Notes: generated from the letters alone by a model not told the origin. A stretch of DNA of 64,000 bases from Lachnospiraceae bacterium (GCA_045119215.1 JBGVDD010000098.1:33632-97631), one strand, 5' to 3'. Numbered from the stretch's first letter, positions 1-8,009 are shown. A program made the numbers and translations.

Positions 1-177
1 AAAAATATCAGAAATGTATCAGTAGATGTGCTGGTAATTTATCTGGCTTTTTTTGCAGAATGTTCGGTGTTGATAAACTATCGCCAGCCATTGTTCTGGA
101 TGCTGTTTGTCGTAGGACATGAGTTGTTGTACAGATGTGAGCTTGACACTTGCTGTCAAGCTGTGCACCAAGAATGA
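1..177 (+). CDS. possible 3' end of a gene starting upstream of the window (hydrophobic C-terminal fragment, product unknown)
   Basis: Frame +1 is open from base 1 to TGA at 175-177 (..VLVIYLAFFAECSVLINYRQPLFWMLFVVGHELLY..). It is absent from the ORF track because it has no start inside the window. No motif recognised. It competes with the unconvincing antisense ORF 8..196. Confidence 0.25.
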   Translation, partial: KNIRNVSVDVLVIYLAFFAECSVLINYRQPLFWMLFVVGHELLYRCELDTCCQAVHQE

Positions 178-187
178 TATTGTGAGA

Positions 188-420
188 AATTTGCATGCGT
201 AAGCATTGTCCGATTTCGTAACAGTTTAGCCTATGGCTGAACTGTTACTATGAAGATGAGCCAGGTTACGATTCATCATTGACATTTTTTACTCAAAAAT
301 GTACAATTCAAGGTAACTATTCAGTATAGGTCTCAGCATTTACTGCTGAGACCGTGGAAAAATGTAAATTTTACAAAAACGGGGCAATTATGCATGCGTA
401 AGTAGTGCCCCATTTACGCT
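188..420 (-). repeat. composite of one truncated and one near-full copy of a multi-hairpin intergenic repeat family (inverted relative to the copy at 63396-63551)
   Basis: 311-420 aligns by eye with the reverse complement of 63441-63551 (ggtaa..ttcagta.aggtctcagcatttactgctgagaccgt..aaaatgta.attttacaaaaa.cgggcaatt.tgcatgcgtaag..gccc.attt). 188-248 repeats the tgcatgcgtaagcattg.ccgattt module followed by a different hairpin (cgtaacagtt/aactgttac). Hairpin arms: 329-338/344-353 and 381-386/406-411. Confidence 0.8.
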
Positions 421-611
421 AGTACAAGGTATTTCTAAAAGAATTGGAAGAGATAAATAAAGTTTAGAATTTAGAAAAAAAGCAATAATAATATTGATGT
501 AATTTAGGGATTTGAGTAAAAGTCAAAAGCATATCATCAAAGTCATAATTATTTTATATATTGCAATATAGAAAATTAAAGCCTTTGGCGGAAAGGCAGA
601 ATAGGAGCAAA

Positions 612-1901
612 ATGCAATTAAAATTGAGCAATGTTGCAAAAATAAAGGACGCAACGATTAATATTGATGGAATAACAGTTATTGCTGGTGAAAATAATAC
701 TGGTAAAAGTACAATTGGAAAGGTGCTTTATTCTATATTTAATTCAATGAACAATATGGAAGAGAAGATAGCAAAAGAAAAACAAGGTCGAGTAGGCCAT
801 ATTATCTGGCTATTAGTACAAAATTGGTCTATGCAGCATGGGGGGGATACTGCCTCGAGTAAGAAAAATTATAGAAGATGGGCTTTGACACTAACAGAGA
901 AGATAAAAGAGGCTCTGACGGTAGAAAATAATGAAAATATAGAAAAGATTATCAAGCAGTTTACAAAAGAATCGGGATTTGGAAATTCTCAAGGAGAGGA
1001 AGAGGAATTTATAGAAGAATGTGTAATGCAGCTGGAAAGTATTTTAAATATTCCGGATGAAAGAGTAATGATGGAAGTTATTACACGATGGTTTAATAGA
1101 GTATTTGAGAAACAAATTTCACCCTTAATGGAAGAGAATTGTATTTCAGAAATTGAATTGATATTAAAGGATAAATTAGTTCAGTTAAGGTTTAAAAATA
1201 ATACTTGTATAGAGTGTAATTCAGAGGTCAACATTTTGCACAATGCATTTTATATTGATAATCCATTTGTTATTGATTATATGGACCACGGATTTTTTAG
1301 ATCAGAGTTAAAGACGACAGATGAGCATTTGCTAAATTATATTTGTGAAGAGGGGGATATATTTGATAATATTTTTGAGGCTGTGTTGGCAAAAGGTAAA
1401 TTAGAGGAAATAAATGAACTATTGGAAAATATTGTAGGGGGAGATTTTATTGAAAATCAAGAGGGAGGATATTGTCTTGCGTCTCGAAAATTTAGTAAAC
1501 CCATTAATATAAAGAATTTATCTACCGGTTTAAAATCGTTTGCGTTAATAAAAAGACTTTTAGAAAATGGAAGTTTAAAAGAGAAGGATATTTTGATTTT
1601 AGATGAGCCGGAAATACATTTGCACCCAGAGTGGCAATTAGCATATGCTCAGATGATTGTGTTGTTGCAGAAAAAATTTGATTTAACTATGATTATTACT
1701 ACACATAGTCCTTATTTTTTGGATGCCATTGATGTTTTTTCTGCTAAGTATGAAATGTCTGATAAAGTTAATTATTATTTGGCGGAAAGCGTAGAAGAGT
1801 TTTCATATTTGCATAATGTAACAAACAAAATTGATGCTATTTATAAGAAACTATCTGACCCATTACAAAAGTTGGAAAGTATGCGTAGCAGGTTGGTATA
1901 G
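612..1901 (+). CDS. ABC/SMC-like ATPase of the AAA_15/AAA_21 type (predicted defence-type ATPase)
   Basis: ORF 561..1901. Preferred ATG at 612 follows AGGAG (603-607). Walker A GENNTGKST (687-713), signature-like LSTGLKS, Walker B ILILDEPE (1590-1613), H-loop-like ITTHSPYF. About 270 aa are inserted between Walker A and the signature motif. Confidence 0.8.
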   Translation: MQLKLSNVAKIKDATINIDGITVIAGENNTGKSTIGKVLYSIFNSMNNMEEKIAKEKQGRVGHIIWLLVQNWSMQHGGDTASSKKNYRRWALTLTEKIKEALTVENNENIEKIIKQFTKESGFGNSQGEEEEFIEECVMQLESILNIPDERVMMEVITRWFNRVFEKQISPLMEENCISEIELILKDKLVQLRFKNNTCIECNSEVNILHNAFYIDNPFVIDYMDHGFFRSELKTTDEHLLNYICEEGDIFDNIFEAVLAKGKLEEINELLENIVGGDFIENQEGGYCLASRKFSKPINIKNLSTGLKSFALIKRLLENGSLKEKDILILDEPEIHLHPEWQLAYAQMIVLLQKKFDLTMIITTHSPYFLDAIDVFSAKYEMSDKVNYYLAESVEEFSYLHNVTNKIDAIYKKLSDPLQKLESMRSRLV

Positions 1902-1918
1902 ATAAGGGGGGAGAGGAT

Positions 1919-2542
1919 TTGCATATAATAGATGAAAAAAGCAGCACTTTAAAAGATACATCATATGATGAAGACAATAAGGTATATATGGTTGACAGTA
2001 GCCTTGAAGTATGTTCATTTGATGATGTAAAAGAGTGGTATGTGAAAAATAAAATACCTTTAGCAAACCCTAATCCTAAATCTAATGATGCATTGCTTTT
2101 TGATAAAGGGGAGAGCTTTTTTATTGAATTTAAGAATGGAAAGATTAATAATGCGGTAAATTTTGAGATCAATAAGAAAATATACGATAGTTTGCTTATG
2201 CTGTTTGATTTAGGATATGTTGATGAAAATGGGCGAGAGGTTGATTCAATATCTTATACAAGGCAAAACATGAATTACATATTGGTCTATAATTATGAAA
2301 AATATTTAGAAGCCGGACCAACGAGACAAACGAAAGAGGGATTTGAGCGGCAAAGAGTTGAAGTATCATCGTCAAAGCATAGAGATTTATTGTTTTCCAC
2401 TATGAGGAAACTGGCAGATGATGAATTAATTAAGTTTGGTTTAGATCAATTTAAAAATTATCTTTTCAAAGATGTTCATACATATACGGTTGAAGAATTT
2501 CAAGAAAAATTCATAAATGAGCAGTATACTATCAGCATTTAA
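1919..2542 (+). CDS. small protein with PD-(D/E)xK nuclease-like motif
   Basis: Starts 17 nt after the ATPase stop. TTG start follows the purine-rich SD TAAGGGGGGAGAGGA. Motif SNDALLFDKGESFFIEFKNGK gives D57 (2087-2089), E70 (2126-2128) and K72 (2132-2134), with the spacing and hydrophobic strand context of restriction-endonuclease-like folds. Confidence 0.6.
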   Translation: MHIIDEKSSTLKDTSYDEDNKVYMVDSSLEVCSFDDVKEWYVKNKIPLANPNPKSNDALLFDKGESFFIEFKNGKINNAVNFEINKKIYDSLLMLFDLGYVDENGREVDSISYTRQNMNYILVYNYEKYLEAGPTRQTKEGFERQRVEVSSSKHRDLLFSTMRKLADDELIKFGLDQFKNYLFKDVHTYTVEEFQEKFINEQYTISI

Positions 2543-2616
2543 TTTTTCATGAATCTATATATATGAAATTCATAGGTATGAGGTAATAATAAAGCATAAC
2601 GCCCCCAACACAGTCA

Positions 2617-2645
2617 TTGACAATCGTATAGGAATACAGTAAAAT
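2617..2645 (+). promoter_or_regulatory. sigma-A-like promoter (TTGACA-17 nt-TAAAAT)
   Basis: TTGACA at 2617-2622, a 17-nt spacer, TAAAAT at 2640-2645. Lies about 120 nt upstream of the 2763 start codon. Confidence 0.5.
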
Positions 2646-2674
2646 TATTGTACAAGAGAACGGACAAAAGAACG

Positions 2675-2700
2675 AGCACCTGGTAAGGTGCTTTTGTTTT
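2675..2700 (+). terminator. short intrinsic-terminator-like hairpin
   Basis: AGCACC (2675-2680), loop TGGTAA, GGTGCT (2687-2692), then TTTGTTTT. It lies downstream of the ATPase/nuclease pair but also downstream of the promoter-like site at 2617-2645. Confidence 0.45.
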
Positions 2701-2762
2701 GAGAAACGAAAGAGAAGTGGCAAAAATTTACAGGAAGTAGAGTGCAGAGGTAGTGAAATAGA

Positions 2763-3635
2763 ATGAGTGAGAATATGAGAGCGAAATTAAAATGGGTCAT
2801 ACATGGTGTGGTTCTGATAATATCCGTTATTTTTCTTGGGATTGTCTGTGAAAAGGCTTCAAATGCCACCGTAATGGAGACGGGCATACCACAGATTGTT
2901 TGTATTGTTATCACAGCGTTCATAGTGAACATTATAAAGGCTGTCAGAATGTATGTTATTATGTTTGGATATGAATTTTCGATTTGTAAATTCATAAGAT
3001 TTTACATTGTCACAGCGTTTGCCAATATTACCATACCCTTTAAATGCGGTGAACTATACAGAGGGTATTATTTGGGGGATTTACTAGGTTCTTTCTCCGA
3101 AGGATATCTTATGGTTATTTTTGACCGTTTTGTGGATACTTTGGCACTAATTAGTATTGTTATCGGTGTAAATATTTTTCTGGGGACAGATATGGGAGTG
3201 GTTTATCTGTTGCTGTCTGGTTTTTTATTTATTGCGTTGACAGCATATTTACTTTTTCCACCTTTATATAAGTATTGGAATCATTATCTGATATTTAACC
3301 GGAGTTCCAAAAATACTTTGAAGGCATTACATTTTCTGGAAGTATGCCATAAAACCTTTGAAAAAATATCTGGTATTGCCAATGGACGTTTTGTCATGTT
3401 ATATATCATTTCTTTGGCTGCATGGATTGTGGAGATATCCAGTATTCTTATAGTAAACAGTGACGCAAAAAAAAATTATGTAAGTGAATATTTGAAAAAA
3501 ATACTCACCGGTGAAACCACACAATACAATTTTTTCTTTATACTTGGCAGTCTGGTTTTGTTTGCGATTTTGGCAGTAGTTTGTTTGTTTCAAAGAAGGG
3601 AGAAGGGTAAAAATGAAACTAGTAGTTGTATATGA
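2763..3635 (+). CDS. polytopic membrane protein, UPF0104/LPG-synthase-TM flippase-like family
   Basis: Multiple hydrophobic helices. The motif ANITIPFKCGELYRGYYL resembles the conserved P-x-(K/R)-x-GE-x-x-R loop of the UPF0104 family. Confidence 0.6.
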   Translation: MSENMRAKLKWVIHGVVLIISVIFLGIVCEKASNATVMETGIPQIVCIVITAFIVNIIKAVRMYVIMFGYEFSICKFIRFYIVTAFANITIPFKCGELYRGYYLGDLLGSFSEGYLMVIFDRFVDTLALISIVIGVNIFLGTDMGVVYLLLSGFLFIALTAYLLFPPLYKYWNHYLIFNRSSKNTLKALHFLEVCHKTFEKISGIANGRFVMLYIISLAAWIVEISSILIVNSDAKKNYVSEYLKKILTGETTQYNFFFILGSLVLFAILAVVCLFQRREKGKNETSSCI

Positions 3636-5076
3636 TAATTTAATCAAACCAAACGAAATCATTCAGGAAGTCATTGGAAATAAAGGATTTGGAGATGTTG
3701 TTGTCAAAAGAAAGCGCCTGGAAGAATTTTATATGGAAAATCTTAAGACGATTTTTCCGGAACTGAAATGGTATGCTTGTAATAACTTATACGATATCAA
3801 GGGTTTAGAAGAGATGATACGCGCTTACCAGGAGAAAGATGGTGTGCGGGTGTTGCATTGTTTTTCAAACCATATTATTTCGGAACTTGAGAAAGCAAGG
3901 CTGACCTTGGAAAAAGTACACTACATCCATGAAACTGTGAAAATCACAGAGCATCATCGGCCTGTGGGGTTGATGTTTGCAGATGGTAAGGAATATGTAG
4001 AGTTTTTAGCTGAGATTTGTAAGAGGGAAAAGGCAGAACAGATTCTGAAGGAATCCCATTATCCTGCTATTGACATAGAGGGAATGAATTATATTGGCAC
4101 TATAAGCAATTTTATTCAGTGTATTACCGGGAATTTTGACGCACGTTATTTTAATTCTCTCCAGGGGAATGAATATTCTATTCGAAAAGAATCTACGAAT
4201 ATTAAAAAGATAAAAAGTGAGTATACCTACTACCACCTTCTTCCGGACAACATGAAGTGCTGGTTTGTTATGCCCTATGATTATAGGGAAGAAAGGGATA
4301 AATCAAGCTACGAAATGGAGCGGCTTCATATGACAGATATTGCCATTAAATGGGTTCATGGCTCTATTGGCATAGAAGAGTTTGAGGAATTAATGGAAAG
4401 ATATTTTTACTTTTTTGGGATAAGGGGGAAAAAGCCTGTTTCCAGGGAGACATACCAAAGTATCAGCGATAGTCTGTATATAGATAAGGTAAGAGAAAGA
4501 ATTGAACAGTTAAAGGAGCTGTCACAGTTTAAAAAAATTGAAAAACTGTTGTCTAACTGCAAGGAACACAATGATATTGACGAAATTTTCCAGTGGTATT
4601 TAGGGATAAAAGAAAAGGTGGAGAAAAGGGTAAGCTTTAAAACAGAAAGTGTGATAGGTCACGGTGATCCATGTTTTGCCAATGCATTGTACAATAGGTC
4701 TACCAAGACTTTGAAATTTATTGACCCGAAAGGGGCTCTTACCAAAGAGGAGCTTTGGACAAATCCATATTATGATATTGCCAAGTTAAGTCATTCTGTT
4801 TGTGGCCGTTATGATTTTTTTAATAATGCTATGTTTGATATTTCTATTAATGAGGAGTTTGAATATGAACTGAATATTCCCTTTGATAATGAAGAATATA
4901 AAGAAATTTTTAGAGAAAAAGTAGAGGCACATGGATATGATTATTGGACCGTTCGACTGTACGAGGCATCGTTGTTCCTGTCTATGTTGCCATTACATAT
5001 TGATTATCCACATAAAGTGTTTGGCTTTTTGCTAAATGCAATAAATATGCTAAAGGAGATAGAAGAAAATGTTTAG
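3613..5076 (+). CDS. two-domain protein with C-terminal APH/choline-kinase-like phosphotransferase fold
   Basis: RBS GGAGAAGGG. Overlaps the previous gene by 23 nt. Brenner-type motif IGHGDPCFANALYN (Asp codon 4666-4668) followed by FIDPKG, as in aminoglycoside/choline kinase-like enzymes. The N-terminal ~170 aa were not recognised. Confidence 0.6.
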   Translation: MKLVVVYDNLIKPNEIIQEVIGNKGFGDVVVKRKRLEEFYMENLKTIFPELKWYACNNLYDIKGLEEMIRAYQEKDGVRVLHCFSNHIISELEKARLTLEKVHYIHETVKITEHHRPVGLMFADGKEYVEFLAEICKREKAEQILKESHYPAIDIEGMNYIGTISNFIQCITGNFDARYFNSLQGNEYSIRKESTNIKKIKSEYTYYHLLPDNMKCWFVMPYDYREERDKSSYEMERLHMTDIAIKWVHGSIGIEEFEELMERYFYFFGIRGKKPVSRETYQSISDSLYIDKVRERIEQLKELSQFKKIEKLLSNCKEHNDIDEIFQWYLGIKEKVEKRVSFKTESVIGHGDPCFANALYNRSTKTLKFIDPKGALTKEELWTNPYYDIAKLSHSVCGRYDFFNNAMFDISINEEFEYELNIPFDNEEYKEIFREKVEAHGYDYWTVRLYEASLFLSMLPLHIDYPHKVFGFLLNAINMLKEIEENV

Positions 5077-5467
5077 TGAATATACCTTTGTATTTGATAT
5101 TGATGGAACTATTTGTCCTATTAAGAAAAAAGAAGAAAAGTATGAGGATTTGGTTCCATATAGTGAAGTTGTGGAAAAATTACAGTATTATCATGAGAAT
5201 GGTGCAAAGATTGTATTGTTTACTTCAAGAAATATGGCTTCCTACAATGGGAATATTGGATTGATCAACAAAAATACGGCGAAAGTATTAAGCCAGTGGC
5301 TGGAAAAGTGGAATATTCCATATGATGAAATCGTATATGGAAAGCCATGGCCAGGACATAAGGGATTTTATGTAGATGACCGTTCCGTCAGACCGGATGA
5401 ATTTTTGATGAATGACGTGGAAGGTTTGAATAGAATTTGTGAAGAAGCAAGGCAACGACTAAAATAA
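5069..5467 (+). CDS. small HAD-superfamily phosphatase (capsule-biosynthesis-phosphatase-like)
   Basis: Overlaps the previous gene by 8 nt. HAD motif I FVFDIDGT (Asp codons 5096-5098 and 5102-5104), TSR motif II, YGKPW..YVDDR near the C-terminus. At 132 aa it is typical of cap-less mini-HADs. Confidence 0.65.
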   Translation: MFSEYTFVFDIDGTICPIKKKEEKYEDLVPYSEVVEKLQYYHENGAKIVLFTSRNMASYNGNIGLINKNTAKVLSQWLEKWNIPYDEIVYGKPWPGHKGFYVDDRSVRPDEFLMNDVEGLNRICEEARQRLK

Positions 5468-5536
5468 AGCTCACATGCAATGGGGTAAAATATCTAAAAA
5501 GAAGAATACCAGTAACAGTTAGGGAAGGATACAAGG

Positions 5537-6112
5537 ATGAAAGATACACTAAGAAAAATAGGGAAAATAATAGGAGTTTACGCTGGAATATATGTACTTT
5601 GTTCTGTAATATTTGTAGCTTTATTTCATACCTCATTGCTTTCAAAACTACACGTGTTGATGTATCGGGGAATTGTATATTTAGTGTTGGCTGGGATTGT
5701 AGCAGCAGTATGTATGGGGATATGCAGGATGCGATGGAAATCTCTTTTTGATGTGAAAGATATTGTTTTGATGTTTCTGGGATTTTGCTGTGTAAATATG
5801 GTTTTGTTTACTCTTATTCCTGTTACGGTAGAACGTTCTGTATCAGTGTTTACTTTAAGCTATATGATGGAAAATCCGGGAGTGTATACCGTTAGTGATA
5901 TGGAAGATATTTTCCATAAAACTTATGTGTGTGAATTTCAGGCTTTTGATAAAAGGTTTGAAGAACAGATTATTTCAGGAAATGTGGAAGAAAAAGATGG
6001 GGGATATGTATTGACAAAGCGGGGAGAGTTTACAGTAAACTTTTTTCGAACGATATCTTCTTTATTTAACACAGATGAACGACTAATTTATCCAAATGAA
6101 AATACAGAGTAG
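5537..6112 (+). CDS. membrane protein (3-4 TM) with ~80-aa soluble C-terminal domain, function unknown
   Basis: RBS AGGGAAGGA. The N-terminal half is hydrophobic and the C-terminal half is hydrophilic. No motif recognised. Confidence 0.55.
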   Translation: MKDTLRKIGKIIGVYAGIYVLCSVIFVALFHTSLLSKLHVLMYRGIVYLVLAGIVAAVCMGICRMRWKSLFDVKDIVLMFLGFCCVNMVLFTLIPVTVERSVSVFTLSYMMENPGVYTVSDMEDIFHKTYVCEFQAFDKRFEEQIISGNVEEKDGGYVLTKRGEFTVNFFRTISSLFNTDERLIYPNENTE

Positions 6113-6128
6113 GGCGGGGATGGGACAG

Positions 6129-6168
6129 CCTGGGTTATGCAAGGTCATAATCCAGGTTGTTTTTTATT
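6129..6168 (+). terminator. intrinsic terminator of the 2763-6112 operon
   Basis: 11-bp stem cctgggttatg/cataatccagg (one G-U pair), loop caaggt, then TTGTTTTTTATT. It overlaps the last codons of the convergent gene 6135-6635. Confidence 0.65.
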
Positions 6169-6635
6169 AGAAATTTCTTTACCATTTCATCCCAGGCATG
6201 GTCCAAAGATTTATCCATGGTGAAGGTATTTAAAGAAGTACCGGTGATTACTGTGACAGAGCCATTTTCAAATGAAATATTCAGGTAAAGACCAGACACA
6301 TCTAGTAGGGTTAAAGTAGTATCAGCGGCACAAATGGTCTTTTCTGTGTTTTTTTTTGATAATTTCAGTACAAAATGAAAGGAAAGTGGAGTTTTTTTGC
6401 CTTTCATCATGTCCAGACAGATATTTTTACATTCAGACCAGGCAATCAGTTCTGTTTGGAAACTCTCATCCTCTAATTCCTCCGGGGTATAAAAGTCTTT
6501 TCTTCTGTTTCCGTTGATTGCCATGGTATAGAAGGTTTCAATGGAAGCCTCCTTCACCCAGAACTGATCAAAGGTGTTTTGTAAAAGCATATGGTTCATA
6601 AATGCTTTGGTATTTTTTATTTTCAACGAAATCAT
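6135..6635 (-). CDS. conserved hypothetical cytoplasmic protein
   Basis: ORF 6135..6650. The ATG at 6635 follows AGGAGG with a 5-nt spacer. No motif recognised. Confidence 0.6.
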   Translation of the reverse strand: MISLKIKNTKAFMNHMLLQNTFDQFWVKEASIETFYTMAINGNRRKDFYTPEELEDESFQTELIAWSECKNICLDMMKGKKTPLSFHFVLKLSKKNTEKTICAADTTLTLLDVSGLYLNISFENGSVTVITGTSLNTFTMDKSLDHAWDEMVKKFLIKNNLDYDLA

Positions 6636-6828
6636 AAATTCCTCCTGCAAATAAATACAATTATAAAATCAGTATAGCATAATCATACCATAAAAACAAA
6701 CAAATCTCAGATAACCCTTTTCAAATTCTTCTCTATATGTTATAGTAAGTAGTAATGAAAACTACATGTAATTGTGGGGAATAAATGGATTCAAATATAT
6801 ATTTAAGGAATCATACTAGGAGGAAATT

Positions 6829-7668
6829 ATGAGTTATAAAATCGTTGTGGACAGCTGCGGAGAGCTGACGCCTCAGATGAAAGCCAGTCAGAAAATAATC
6901 AACATACCATTGACCTTACAGGTGGACAATAGGGAAATTGTAGATGATGAAAGTTTTAATCAGGCAGAATTTCTAGCACTGGTGGCGGCCAGTGAAAATT
7001 GTCCAAAGTCTGCATGTCCGTCTCCGGAGAAATATCAGATGAGTTGTGAGGGGGAGGAAGAACGAATCTATATCGTTACATTGTCCTCCAATTTAAGCGG
7101 TTCATATAATAGCGCAGTCTTAGGCAGACAATTATACTTAGAGGAGAAGGGGAAAAAGCAGATTCATGTATTTAATTCACGTTCTGCATCTGTGGGAGAA
7201 ACCTTGATTGCATTAAAGATTCAGGAATGCGAAGAAAAGGGAATGAGTTTTGAGCAGGTGGTAGATACCACAGAAAAATATATTCGTGGAATGAGAACCT
7301 ACTTTGTATTGGAAAATCTTGATACCTTGCGCAAAAATGGAAGGCTTAGCAAAGCAAAAGCCCTGGTGGCTACAGCATTAAAAATCAAACCTGTTATGGG
7401 AGAAGACGGTGAAGGGAATATTATTCAGCTAGACCAGACCCGGGGAATGAATAAAGCTATGATGAAAATGTTAGAATATGTAGAGAAGAATATGGAAAAT
7501 CCGGAAGAAAAGGTGGTTGCTATATCACAGTGTAACTGTCCGGAAAGAGCCGAAATCTTAAAAGATGAAGTAAAGAAGCGTTTTCCTGTGAAAGATGTGA
7601 TTGTGGTTGATACAGCGGGAGTCTCAACTATGTATGCTAACGATGGAGGAATCATTATTGCAGTATAA
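6829..7668 (+). CDS. DegV family fatty-acid-binding protein
   Basis: RBS AGGAGG. N-terminus MSYKIVVDSCGEL and overall length and pattern are typical of DegV. Confidence 0.85.
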   Translation: MSYKIVVDSCGELTPQMKASQKIINIPLTLQVDNREIVDDESFNQAEFLALVAASENCPKSACPSPEKYQMSCEGEEERIYIVTLSSNLSGSYNSAVLGRQLYLEEKGKKQIHVFNSRSASVGETLIALKIQECEEKGMSFEQVVDTTEKYIRGMRTYFVLENLDTLRKNGRLSKAKALVATALKIKPVMGEDGEGNIIQLDQTRGMNKAMMKMLEYVEKNMENPEEKVVAISQCNCPERAEILKDEVKKRFPVKDVIVVDTAGVSTMYANDGGIIIAV

Positions 7669-7766
7669 AAAACTGTGGCAAAAATCTTGCATAATTTTAC
7701 AAATGCTGTTACCATAGGTAGTGGTGTGATATATTTTTAAATTAAGAAAAAAGCGAGGGAAATAAA

Positions 7767-8009
7767 TTGAGTCAGGAAAAAGTAGAACGTTATAAAAAAG
7801 AAAAAGCCAACCGTAAAAAAACTATGAAAAAAGCAAAGGTGAGAAAAGCCATGCTTCAGGTAGTGGCGGCAGCAGTAATGGTGGCAGCCATTGGAGGAAT
7901 TGGATATTTTTCCTATAAATCTTATGAGAGTAAGCCAGTGGAAACAGAAGCTGATATGAGAGCTTTTGATGACTATGTAACAAATATTGATGTAGATACG
8001 GCGGAATAA
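7767..8009 (+). CDS. small single-pass membrane protein with Lys-rich N-terminus
   Basis: TTG start 6 nt after GAGGGA. KKEKANRKKTMKKAKVRK is followed by one TM helix (LQVVAAAVMVAAIGGIGYF). Confidence 0.45.
   Translation: MSQEKVERYKKEKANRKKTMKKAKVRKAMLQVVAAAVMVAAIGGIGYFSYKSYESKPVETEADMRAFDDYVTNIDVDTAE

Follow-up and report, generated by a model that had tools for sequence, protein, structure and literature searches.

In a 64,000-nucleotide (nt) stretch of DNA from a Lachnospiraceae bacterium (GCA_045119215.1, JBGVDD010000098.1:33632-97631; called the window below), four genes on the + strand, A to D, form a compact operon. We consider it probable that the first three, A, B and C, make up the conserved core of a system that glycosylates the cell surface, that the parts of this system are scattered across this rumen Lachnospiraceae-type genome, and that a nucleoside diphosphate (NDP) sugar, possibly of fructofuranose, feeds it. 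This reading builds on gene structure, folds, catalytic residues, conservation of the gene neighbourhood, natural fusions (A with B, and the HAD phosphatase with a nucleotidyltransferase), and homology to a trio of proteobacterial genes. The genes and the two domains of B are as follows.

2763-3635, + strand: gene A, 290 amino acids (aa)
3613-5076, + strand: gene B, 487 aa
3613-4128, + strand: N-terminal domain of B, residues 1-172, nucleotidyltransferase fold
4135-5076, + strand: C-terminal domain of B, residues 175-487, APH/choline-kinase fold
5069-5467, + strand: gene C, 132 aa
5537-6112, + strand: gene D, 191 aa

An initial annotation of this DNA, made from the sequence alone, had described four + strand open reading frames (ORFs) here. 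The ORF listing agrees with it exactly, including the overlaps of 23 nt between A and B and of 8 nt between B and C, and the gap of 69 nt between C and D. The three motifs that it quoted are found in the translations: the UPF0104 loop IPFKCGELYRGYY in A, HGDPCFAN...FIDPKG in B, and DIDGT in C.

Folds and catalytic residues of the core proteins

B was folded with 36 homologues, giving a model with a predicted local distance difference test (pLDDT) score of 85.9. When residues 175-487 were compared with known structures using VIA-align, the matches included maltokinase (5jy7, Z 15.4), APH(2'') (3tdv, Z 15.2), 3dxq (Z 14.6), LicA (4r77, Z 14.3) and the N-acetylhexosamine kinase NahK (Z 13.8), in a range of Z from 15.4 to 12 and with top alignments spanning 240-260 aa. 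Foldseek gave 63 matches at E ≤ 1e-3, relatives such as APH(3'), maltokinase, LicA and glucosamine kinase being found at E about 1e-4. The catalytic loop of such kinases reads H-x-D-x4-N and is accompanied by a metal-binding Asp. In B, H350, D352, N357 and D371 satisfy this pattern and, like G351, K192, K199 and E203, they are invariant in 37/37 sequences, and in 9/9 sequences when relatives from E. coli are included. The model thus agrees with the APH/choline-kinase fold (Z 14-15) that had been proposed for this half of the protein, and the catalytic residues are conserved among homologues. We predict that residues 175-487 are a small-molecule kinase domain of this eukaryotic-like kinase fold.

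The first 170 residues or so of B, which the initial annotation could not place, resemble nucleotidyltransferases. Residues 1-172 matched IspD (1vpa, Z 12.3, root-mean-square deviation (rmsd) 3.0 over 155 aa), 2xwn (Z 12.3) and glucose-1-phosphate cytidylyltransferase (1wvc, Z 12.1), with alignments of 155-159 aa and rmsd 3.0-3.2, and the lead given by the Atlas was NTP_transf_3 at 0.88. The G-x-G-x-R loop and the following Lys are absent from the B N-terminus, where the consensus is MxxxVVYDN, and the E. coli relatives of B likewise have no N-terminal glycine loop. Because this loop is absent, the domain was not classed as an active nucleotidyltransferase; it is probably non-catalytic or regulatory.

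B belongs to a large family, with more than 2000 relatives, whose representative clusters number 2936 at E ≤ 1e-3, 2045 at 1e-10 and 516 at 1e-30. B itself has no match in Pfam, and in NCBIfam only APH_3p (E 0.035, 13.6 bits for a cut-off of 205); nothing useful came from searching solved structures with a profile made from the aligned B sequences. Weak PF01636 matches were obtained with the relatives from E. coli and Citrobacter.

The matches to choline and ethanolamine kinases (LicA and 3dxq above) would also suit a scheme of the LicA/LicC kind, in which B phosphorylates choline, ethanolamine or glycerol, a nucleotidyltransferase turns the product into a CDP-alcohol, and a phospho-substituent results. 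The joining of a nucleotidyltransferase-like domain to a kinase may likewise recall the LicC/LicA pairs. We regard this scheme as very improbable: the sugar kinases maltokinase and NahK score equally, the cassette in which B usually lies (see below) has no LicD-type transferase or choline transporter, the HAD phosphatase would be left with no role, and the accompanying glycosyltransferase of family 2 (GT2), GtrA and polytopic proteins point to a sugar.

For C, the best NCBIfam family was TIGR01689, at 127.1 bits for a cut-off of 162, the next family reaching 30 bits; an orthologue of C scored 127.8 bits. C is therefore a close outlier of this family and not a member by NCBI's rule, in line with the earlier description of C as resembling the capsule-biosynthesis phosphatases. 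It is matched by Protein Data Bank entry 1xpj at E 4.4e-35, and residues D10, D12, T14, K92, D103 and D104, which cover HAD motifs I-IV, are kept in 65-66 of 66 sequences. By these features, C is predicted to be a cap-less HAD phosphatase of the EcbF/BcbF type. TIGR01689-like genes were detected in 2/60 other genera of the family, in one of them weakly, a patchy distribution that fits a variable surface decoration. The idea that A-D are a decayed remnant was rejected, as the window proteins retain all family-invariant residues.

A is polytopic, with at least six hydrophobic segments. PF03706 (LPG_synthase_TM, or UPF0104) was matched by 34 of 46 aligned A orthologues, with a best E of 8.4e-18; the window protein itself gave no match to it at E ≤ 0.1. 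The structure model of A (pLDDT 90.2) aligned by VIA-align with MprF 6lvf_B (Z 12.7, rmsd 4.3, 220 aa, chain residues 55-341) and MprF 9j8q (Z 11.6), the next-best structure being at Z 7.0. In Foldseek alone the model gave a weak result (E 0.3). The suggestion that A is flippase-like was well founded, and we conclude from the model that A resembles the flippase domain of MprF and may flip a lipid.

Natural fusions connect A with B. Among the 150 best representatives of the B family, all five long forms (762-818 aa) carry an N-terminal A-like domain, recognized by hhalign with probabilities of 85.6-97.6% and E from 5.5e-6 to 2.9e-12, and 3/5 of these A-B fusions match PF03706. In at least some organisms, therefore, A and B work together physically. 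A complex prediction for A and the GT2 protein of the same genome scored 0.00, which counts neither for nor against binding.

A conserved cassette in other genomes

Related loci were collected from one genome per species; 306 were found and 80 kept. They belong mostly to Lachnospiraceae and Oscillospiraceae, the other carriers being metagenome-assembled genomes (MAGs) labelled Treponema, Selenomonas, Melainabacteria, Saccharibacteria, Elusimicrobium and Alphaproteobacteria, and a Salinibacillus isolate. Among the cultured carriers are Pseudobutyrivibrio ruminis AD2017, Lacrimispora xylanisolvens DSM 3808 and Lachnotalea glycerini DSM 28816. By tblastn, A adjoins B in 76/80 loci and C adjoins B in 74/80, and D was found in 0/80. 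The conserved unit is A-B-C, and not the four genes that had initially been taken together.

Clustering of the flanking ORFs revealed a canonical order: a polytopic protein of cluster c4 (about 540 aa) or c5 (about 960 aa), a GT2 (about 266 aa), A, B, C, a nucleotidyltransferase (about 245 aa) and a GtrA-like protein. An ORF for B was called in 77 of these 80 loci, and those 77 are the denominator for the counts of cassette genes; upstream flank of at least 1.8 kb was available for 68 loci and downstream flank of at least 1.3 kb for 70. The GT2 gene was present in 57/77 loci, c4 or c5 in 52/77 and the GtrA-like gene in 20/77. A nucleotidyltransferase, alone or as a HAD-nucleotidyltransferase fusion, occurred in 60/77 loci: directly 3' of C in 48/77, and as the long fused form directly after B in 8/77. 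Overlapping stop and start codons are usual, by 4 nt for A/B in 30 loci and by 8 nt for B/C in 28. No isomerase, dehydratase or epimerase was found to travel with the cassette.

The cassette nucleotidyltransferase keeps a G-x-x-S-R-F...K loop in 55-60 of 61 sequences and matches HddC weakly (E 2e-5 to 3e-3). No transmembrane (TM) segment is predicted in the GT2, for which the best NCBIfam families were ArnC, AglJ, PpgS and Dol-P-hexose transferase, all weak, with the matches to ArnC, AglJ and PpgS far below their cut-offs. The c4 and c5 proteins have 8-14 TM segments.

The window locus is a trimmed form of this cassette, and the missing parts lie elsewhere in the same genome. On contig C195, genes for GtrA, a GT2 (63% identity) and a c4-like 8-TM protein are adjacent, in the order gtrA-gtrB-gtrC, within a polysaccharide locus that also encodes an initiating sugar transferase. 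On contig C35, an orthologue of the nucleotidyltransferase (54-56% identity) with its G-x-x-S-R-F...K loop intact lies at L083:5712-6458 in a second polysaccharide locus, together with an ABC-2 exporter. Each of these genes is at least 16 kb from the contig ends, and the dispersal of the cassette in this genome is therefore real. The kinase, the phosphatase and the nucleotidyltransferase are thus all present with their catalytic residues, the last being unlinked (C35). The initial annotation had remarked on the absence of a glycosyltransferase or nucleotidyltransferase; this is correct for the window locus and incorrect both for the related loci, with a GT2 upstream and a nucleotidyltransferase downstream, and for contigs C195 and C35.

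From that absence, phospho-modification or a cycle of phosphorylation and dephosphorylation had been proposed. Such a cycle is less likely than nucleotide-sugar synthesis, because the cassette normally carries a GT2 and a nucleotidyltransferase, both of which are found in this genome. In its most explicit form, A would hold a lipid-linked or polyprenol substrate for B and C to act on, and no nucleotide sugar would be made. The gene content of the window locus would suit it, and the A-B fusions are reminiscent of MprF, in which the lipid moved by the flippase domain is first modified by a cytosolic enzyme domain of the same protein. We find it improbable, given the nucleotidyltransferase that follows C in 48/77 loci and is fused to it in 8/77, the cognate nucleotidyltransferase and GT2 kept in this genome, and a proteobacterial trio (next section) that works without any A-like gene.

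Some loci carry additional genes. In L069, L070, L071, L074 and L078 (Lachnotalea, Konateibacter, Galacturonibacter and relatives), four genes lie between the HAD and nucleotidyltransferase genes, encoding a single-TM protein of 226 aa, a CotH-kinase protein, a VTC-domain protein and a DUF4956 protein, with a GT2/GT4 fusion, GtrA and a SASA esterase encoded upstream. In L017, L025, L027, L036, L040 and L049, genes for further proteins often come after the HAD-nucleotidyltransferase fusion: another polytopic one of about 640 aa (cluster 9), one of the Acyl_transf_3 type and one of the radical-SAM/SPASM type.

Relatives in proteobacterial capsule and O-antigen loci

The same enzymes recur as a trio in E. 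coli, consisting of a mini-HAD protein, a nucleotidyltransferase-like plus kinase protein of 514-540 aa and a nucleotidyltransferase of 234-247 aa. A tblastn search of plasmids found relatives of the kinase domain beside HAD relatives in capsule loci, with the trio on capsule plasmids. Annotated E. coli genomes carry the trio in four kinds of locus: the O78 O-antigen cluster (L087:7001-9728; enterotoxigenic E. coli H10407 and other O78 strains), another O-antigen-type locus with WavE-family proteins, a kps locus with a glycerophosphotransferase, and a K4-like kps locus (L093:10270-12615; strain WP7-S18-ESBL-09). In the O78 cluster, the trio and a WavE-family gene are all annotated as hypothetical.

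In BLAST comparisons with O78, the kinase was 28% identical (E 1e-26), the nucleotidyltransferase 31% (E 2e-29) and the HAD protein 47% (E 1e-34). With the K4-like locus, the values were 41% for the HAD protein (E 4e-34) and 34% for the nucleotidyltransferase (E 2e-41), and fragments of the kinase matched at E 3e-5 and 9e-18, the gene being split by IS1. Across phyla, the HAD proteins are 41-52% identical. The K4-like locus reads epimerase, 546-aa protein, 686-aa GT2, insertion sequence, 477-aa protein, then HAD, kinase-like protein, nucleotidyltransferase-like protein, sugar dehydrogenase and GT2, an order in agreement with the account of kfoA to kfoG of E. coli K4 given in the available portions of reviews. 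The split kinase-like gene of WP7-S18-ESBL-09 leaves fragments of 379 and 146 aa; were the fructose reading true, this strain would have an unbranched capsule. Names such as KfoE or BcbG did not occur among the 120 best relatives of the O78 protein.

Loci of this type have been tied to fructose by genetics. According to the available excerpts of the literature, bcbE and bcbG mutants of Pasteurella multocida type B are without the fructose side chain, and BcbF, for which no mutant could be obtained, is predicted to act in the same step as BcbE and BcbG (PMC13552107). Fructosylation of the K4 capsule requires kfoE (PMC8858990, PMC3673904, PMC10609508, in the parts available). Reviews, as excerpted, call KfoE a 'fructosyltransferase' on the evidence of knock-outs; the fold predicted here is that of a kinase. 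The accessible text of these kfoE and bcb papers gives knock-out phenotypes and no biochemical mechanism for the fructosylation genes. The initial remark, that this was not recognised as a described pathway, is half right: it holds for the biochemistry within those excerpts, and relatives lie in capsule loci that are genetically tied to fructosylation.

These observations leave room for the same pathway logic applied to another sugar, either a ketose (xylulose, sedoheptulose, tagatose) or an aldose, which we hold to be a serious but rather unlikely alternative to fructose. The identity of B to its relatives in E. coli is only 25-32%, its sequence does not fix specificity, and the trio is also present in O78 and other loci for which the material covered reports no fructose. 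Set against this, the identity of the HAD proteins across phyla suggests a conserved substrate, the precursor should be a central metabolite since no isomerase, dehydratase or epimerase comes with the cassette, and the only genetic phenotypes in print for the relatives, in the excerpts available, concern fructose. Fructose is not known from the published O78 repeat unit; a substituent that is labile to acid may have escaped notice there.

A locus in a Butyrivibrio MAG (L013:9414-10475) has B, HAD and nucleotidyltransferase genes without A or a GT2, and encodes a WavE-like protein instead, which is 28% identical to the WavE protein of O78. This locus suggests that one and the same donor can be transferred in either of two ways.

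Gene D and the upstream gene pair

D has three N-terminal membrane helices and a C-terminal domain of about 95 aa. It has no match in Pfam or NCBIfam, and the Atlas gives unnamed clusters only. It was found in 3/100 other genomes of the family and 1/400 other genomes of the order, and in all four cases its neighbours were membrane glycosylation proteins (PMT_2, GT87, a 7-TM protein or GtrA), the 7-TM protein being related to a family associated with the cassette. D is outside the conserved cassette, a member of a rare family attached locally, and probably an accessory, recruited to the operon, of some GT-C-type enzyme.

Upstream of A lies another pair of genes.

561-2542: upstream pair, AAA_15/AAA_21 ATPase of 446 aa, then a 207-aa protein

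In PADLOC, the ATPase resembles defence ATPases (HEC-02A at E 3e-23, PD-T4-4_A, AriA, PtuA-like), and the 207-aa protein gave a weak HEC-02B match only (E 8e-4). The pair is likely a two-gene anti-phage module unrelated to the operon. It had been suggested that the pair and A-D form one accessory locus, which in this case would be a six-gene defence island. The two units lie side by side on one strand, each has a low GC content (31.2% for the pair and 34.7% for the operon, against 37.8% for the genome), and the ATPase does match defence ATPases. The conservation data speak otherwise: the ATPase is found in 1/80 related loci, there downstream at another position, and the 207-aa gene in 0/80. 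A terminator-like hairpin separates the units, and none of A-D had a match in PADLOC. We can give hardly any credence to a single six-gene island.

Signals and expression

Apart from the genes, the following signals were mapped around the operon.

2617-2645, + strand: promoter-like site, TTGACA, 17 nt, TAAAAT, 11/12 consensus matches, 5' of a hairpin
2674-2693, both strands: terminator-like hairpin then T-run, between the upstream pair and gene A
2699-2727: weaker promoter-like site
6122-6169, + strand: intrinsic terminator closing the operon, seen by folding

The promoter scan gave 34 sites for 33.4 expected by chance, so that the site at 2617-2645 is a consensus match only. The hairpin at 2674-2693 probably terminates the ATPase/207-aa pair and separates it from the operon. 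At the other end, folding of 6105-6185 revealed an 18-bp hairpin at 6122-6163 running into a U-run, with -27.3 kcal/mol and z = -4.16, a value equalled by 0/200 shuffles. The terminator that had been placed at the end of the operon is thus real by this measure; it was absent from the output of the consensus scan. Because the hairpin overlaps the stop, at the 3' end, of a convergent gene (6135-6650, - strand), the terminator may work in both directions. The convergent gene encodes a DUF5721 protein (E 8.6e-52). An Rfam scan of 1-8000 found no riboswitch or leader RNA, its sole match being a chance snoRNA at E 0.13, and the tRNA scan found no tRNA flanking the locus, hence no integration site.

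The stretch is present in bovine and other gut metagenomes, in 10 studies. Two metatranscriptome runs yielded short contigs identical to parts of B (4453-4616) and D (5828-5978), together with some that lie over the 207-aa gene. In these runs, no RNA covered most of A-C, and such contigs, which cannot show transcript ends, do not prove transcription. Positions 1-320 of the window, especially 218-248, had a depth of 281-910 in DNA runs, against about 5 elsewhere, with many loose ends at 218 and 248. This region, in which no tRNA was found, looks like a sequence that is repeated or shared among many organisms in the samples.

A proposed pathway

The following pathway is inferred throughout, in each enzymatic step and the succession of steps as well as in its sugar, lipid carrier and acceptor. 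B as kinase, C as phosphatase and the C35 nucleotidyltransferase would convert a sugar phosphate into a nucleotide-activated sugar; fructose-6-phosphate, fructose-2,6-bisphosphate, fructose-2-phosphate and NDP-fructose would be an example of such a route. Undecaprenyl phosphate would be charged with the sugar by the TM-less GT2 of C195, which is flanked by GtrA and the polytopic GT-C-like protein. A, which is coupled physically to B, would serve as flippase or scaffold for the lipid-linked intermediate, with A and/or GtrA helping the flipping, and the final transfer of the sugar to a wall polymer, outside the membrane, would be the task of the polytopic protein. Proteobacteria would use the donor in the cytoplasm, with members of the WavE family or other unassigned proteins as candidate transferases.

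The sugar is most likely fructofuranose or another ketose. Fructose is in keeping with the absence of any sugar-modifying enzyme from the cassette and with the genetics of the capsule loci. The most specific version of the scheme, which we put forward tentatively and as rather doubtful in its entirety, is that NDP-beta-D-fructofuranose, a nucleotide sugar not described so far, is made by B, C and the partner nucleotidyltransferase via fructose-2,6-bisphosphate and fructose-2-phosphate, that proteins of the KfoE/BcbG type, labelled fructosyltransferases, are the kinases of this pathway, that in Firmicutes an MprF-like protein, bound or fused to the kinase, channels the labile donor at the membrane to undecaprenyl phosphate, and that unclassified polytopic transferases decorate wall polymers outside the cell.

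Several points weigh against a glycosylation system fed by an NDP-sugar, or against fructose as its sugar. The activity, substrate and product of the pathway enzymes are predicted from sequence, A, B and D themselves have no match to a curated family in Pfam or NCBIfam, and C stays below the TIGR01689 cut-off. In this genome, the parts are on three contigs and their co-function is assumed, and the RNA evidence is thin. Among the c4 and c5 proteins scanned, 0/20 reached a Pfam cut-off, and they have no GT-C family match. A soluble sugar kinase fused to a flippase-like domain would be unexpected, and B could act on a lipid-linked substrate instead. The low identity between B and the E. coli proteins makes the fructose link indirect, and equating kfoE with the kinase-like ORF relies on gene order in a K4-like locus that bears no kfo names. 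Finally, the trio is not universal for fructose, because in Campylobacter jejuni HS1 fructose is added by a single 849-aa protein, and the locus table shows no such trio (PMC7901785).

If the fructofuranose scheme is true, fructosylated wall glycans would be common in rumen and gut Clostridia. The cited literature leaves unexplained how bacteria activate fructose and other ketofuranoses for capsules, O-antigens and wall polymers, and among the titles listed on NDP-fructose and fructose-2-phosphate none deals with the synthesis of bacterial glycans. For a large uncharacterised enzyme family, the analysis adds a two-domain fold and fixed partners, and it links Gram-positive cassettes to the kfoE and bcbEFG loci. 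By the same analysis, sugar decorations that are labile to acid may have gone unnoticed in gut and rumen Clostridia, and possibly on certain O and K antigens of E. coli as well, and A is a pointer to a non-MprF role for the UPF0104 flippase-like fold.

Comparison with known systems

The closest known relatives are the K4 kfoE region and bcbE/bcbF/bcbG of P. multocida, which share a homologous trio of HAD protein, kinase-fold protein and nucleotidyltransferase of about 240 aa, the E. coli ORFs presumably being those that bear these names; TIGR01689, the best family for C, is itself named after EcbF/BcbF. Unlike the Firmicutes cassette, these group 2 capsule loci have no A, GT2, GtrA or polytopic protein, and their assembly is cytoplasmic and ABC-transporter dependent.

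In the GDP/ADP-heptose pathway, a kinase (HddA or HldE) produces a bisphosphate, the HAD phosphatase GmhB removes one phosphate and the nucleotidyltransferase HddC activates the product. The succession of kinase, HAD-IIIA-like phosphatase and nucleotidyltransferase may be analogous here; however, the kinase has an APH fold and not a GHMP or ribokinase fold, and there is no isomerase. Recycling of N-acetylmuramic acid by AmgK, MurU and MupP combines an anomeric sugar kinase of the APH fold with a nucleotidyltransferase and a HAD phosphatase. Beyond the fold there is no detectable sequence relationship with these enzymes, which serve wall recycling, whereas the context here is that of a surface glycan.

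With MprF, A shares the fold of the N-terminal flippase domain and the ability to be fused to a cytosolic enzyme. The sequence identity is 8%, and the partner fused to A is a kinase and not an aminoacyl-phosphatidylglycerol synthase.

The Gtr-type systems (GtrA/GtrB/GtrC; CsbB/GtcA/YfhO) resemble the cassette in having a GT2, here weakly similar to polyprenyl-phosphate glycosyltransferases, a GtrA protein and a large polytopic protein. They differ in that the GT2 of the cassette is without TM helices, that its polytopic proteins match no GT-C family, and that an MprF-like protein coupled to the kinase and a module for donor synthesis are added. It is plausible that the cassette combines Gtr-type glycosylation with an activation route made of a kinase, a phosphatase and a nucleotidyltransferase.

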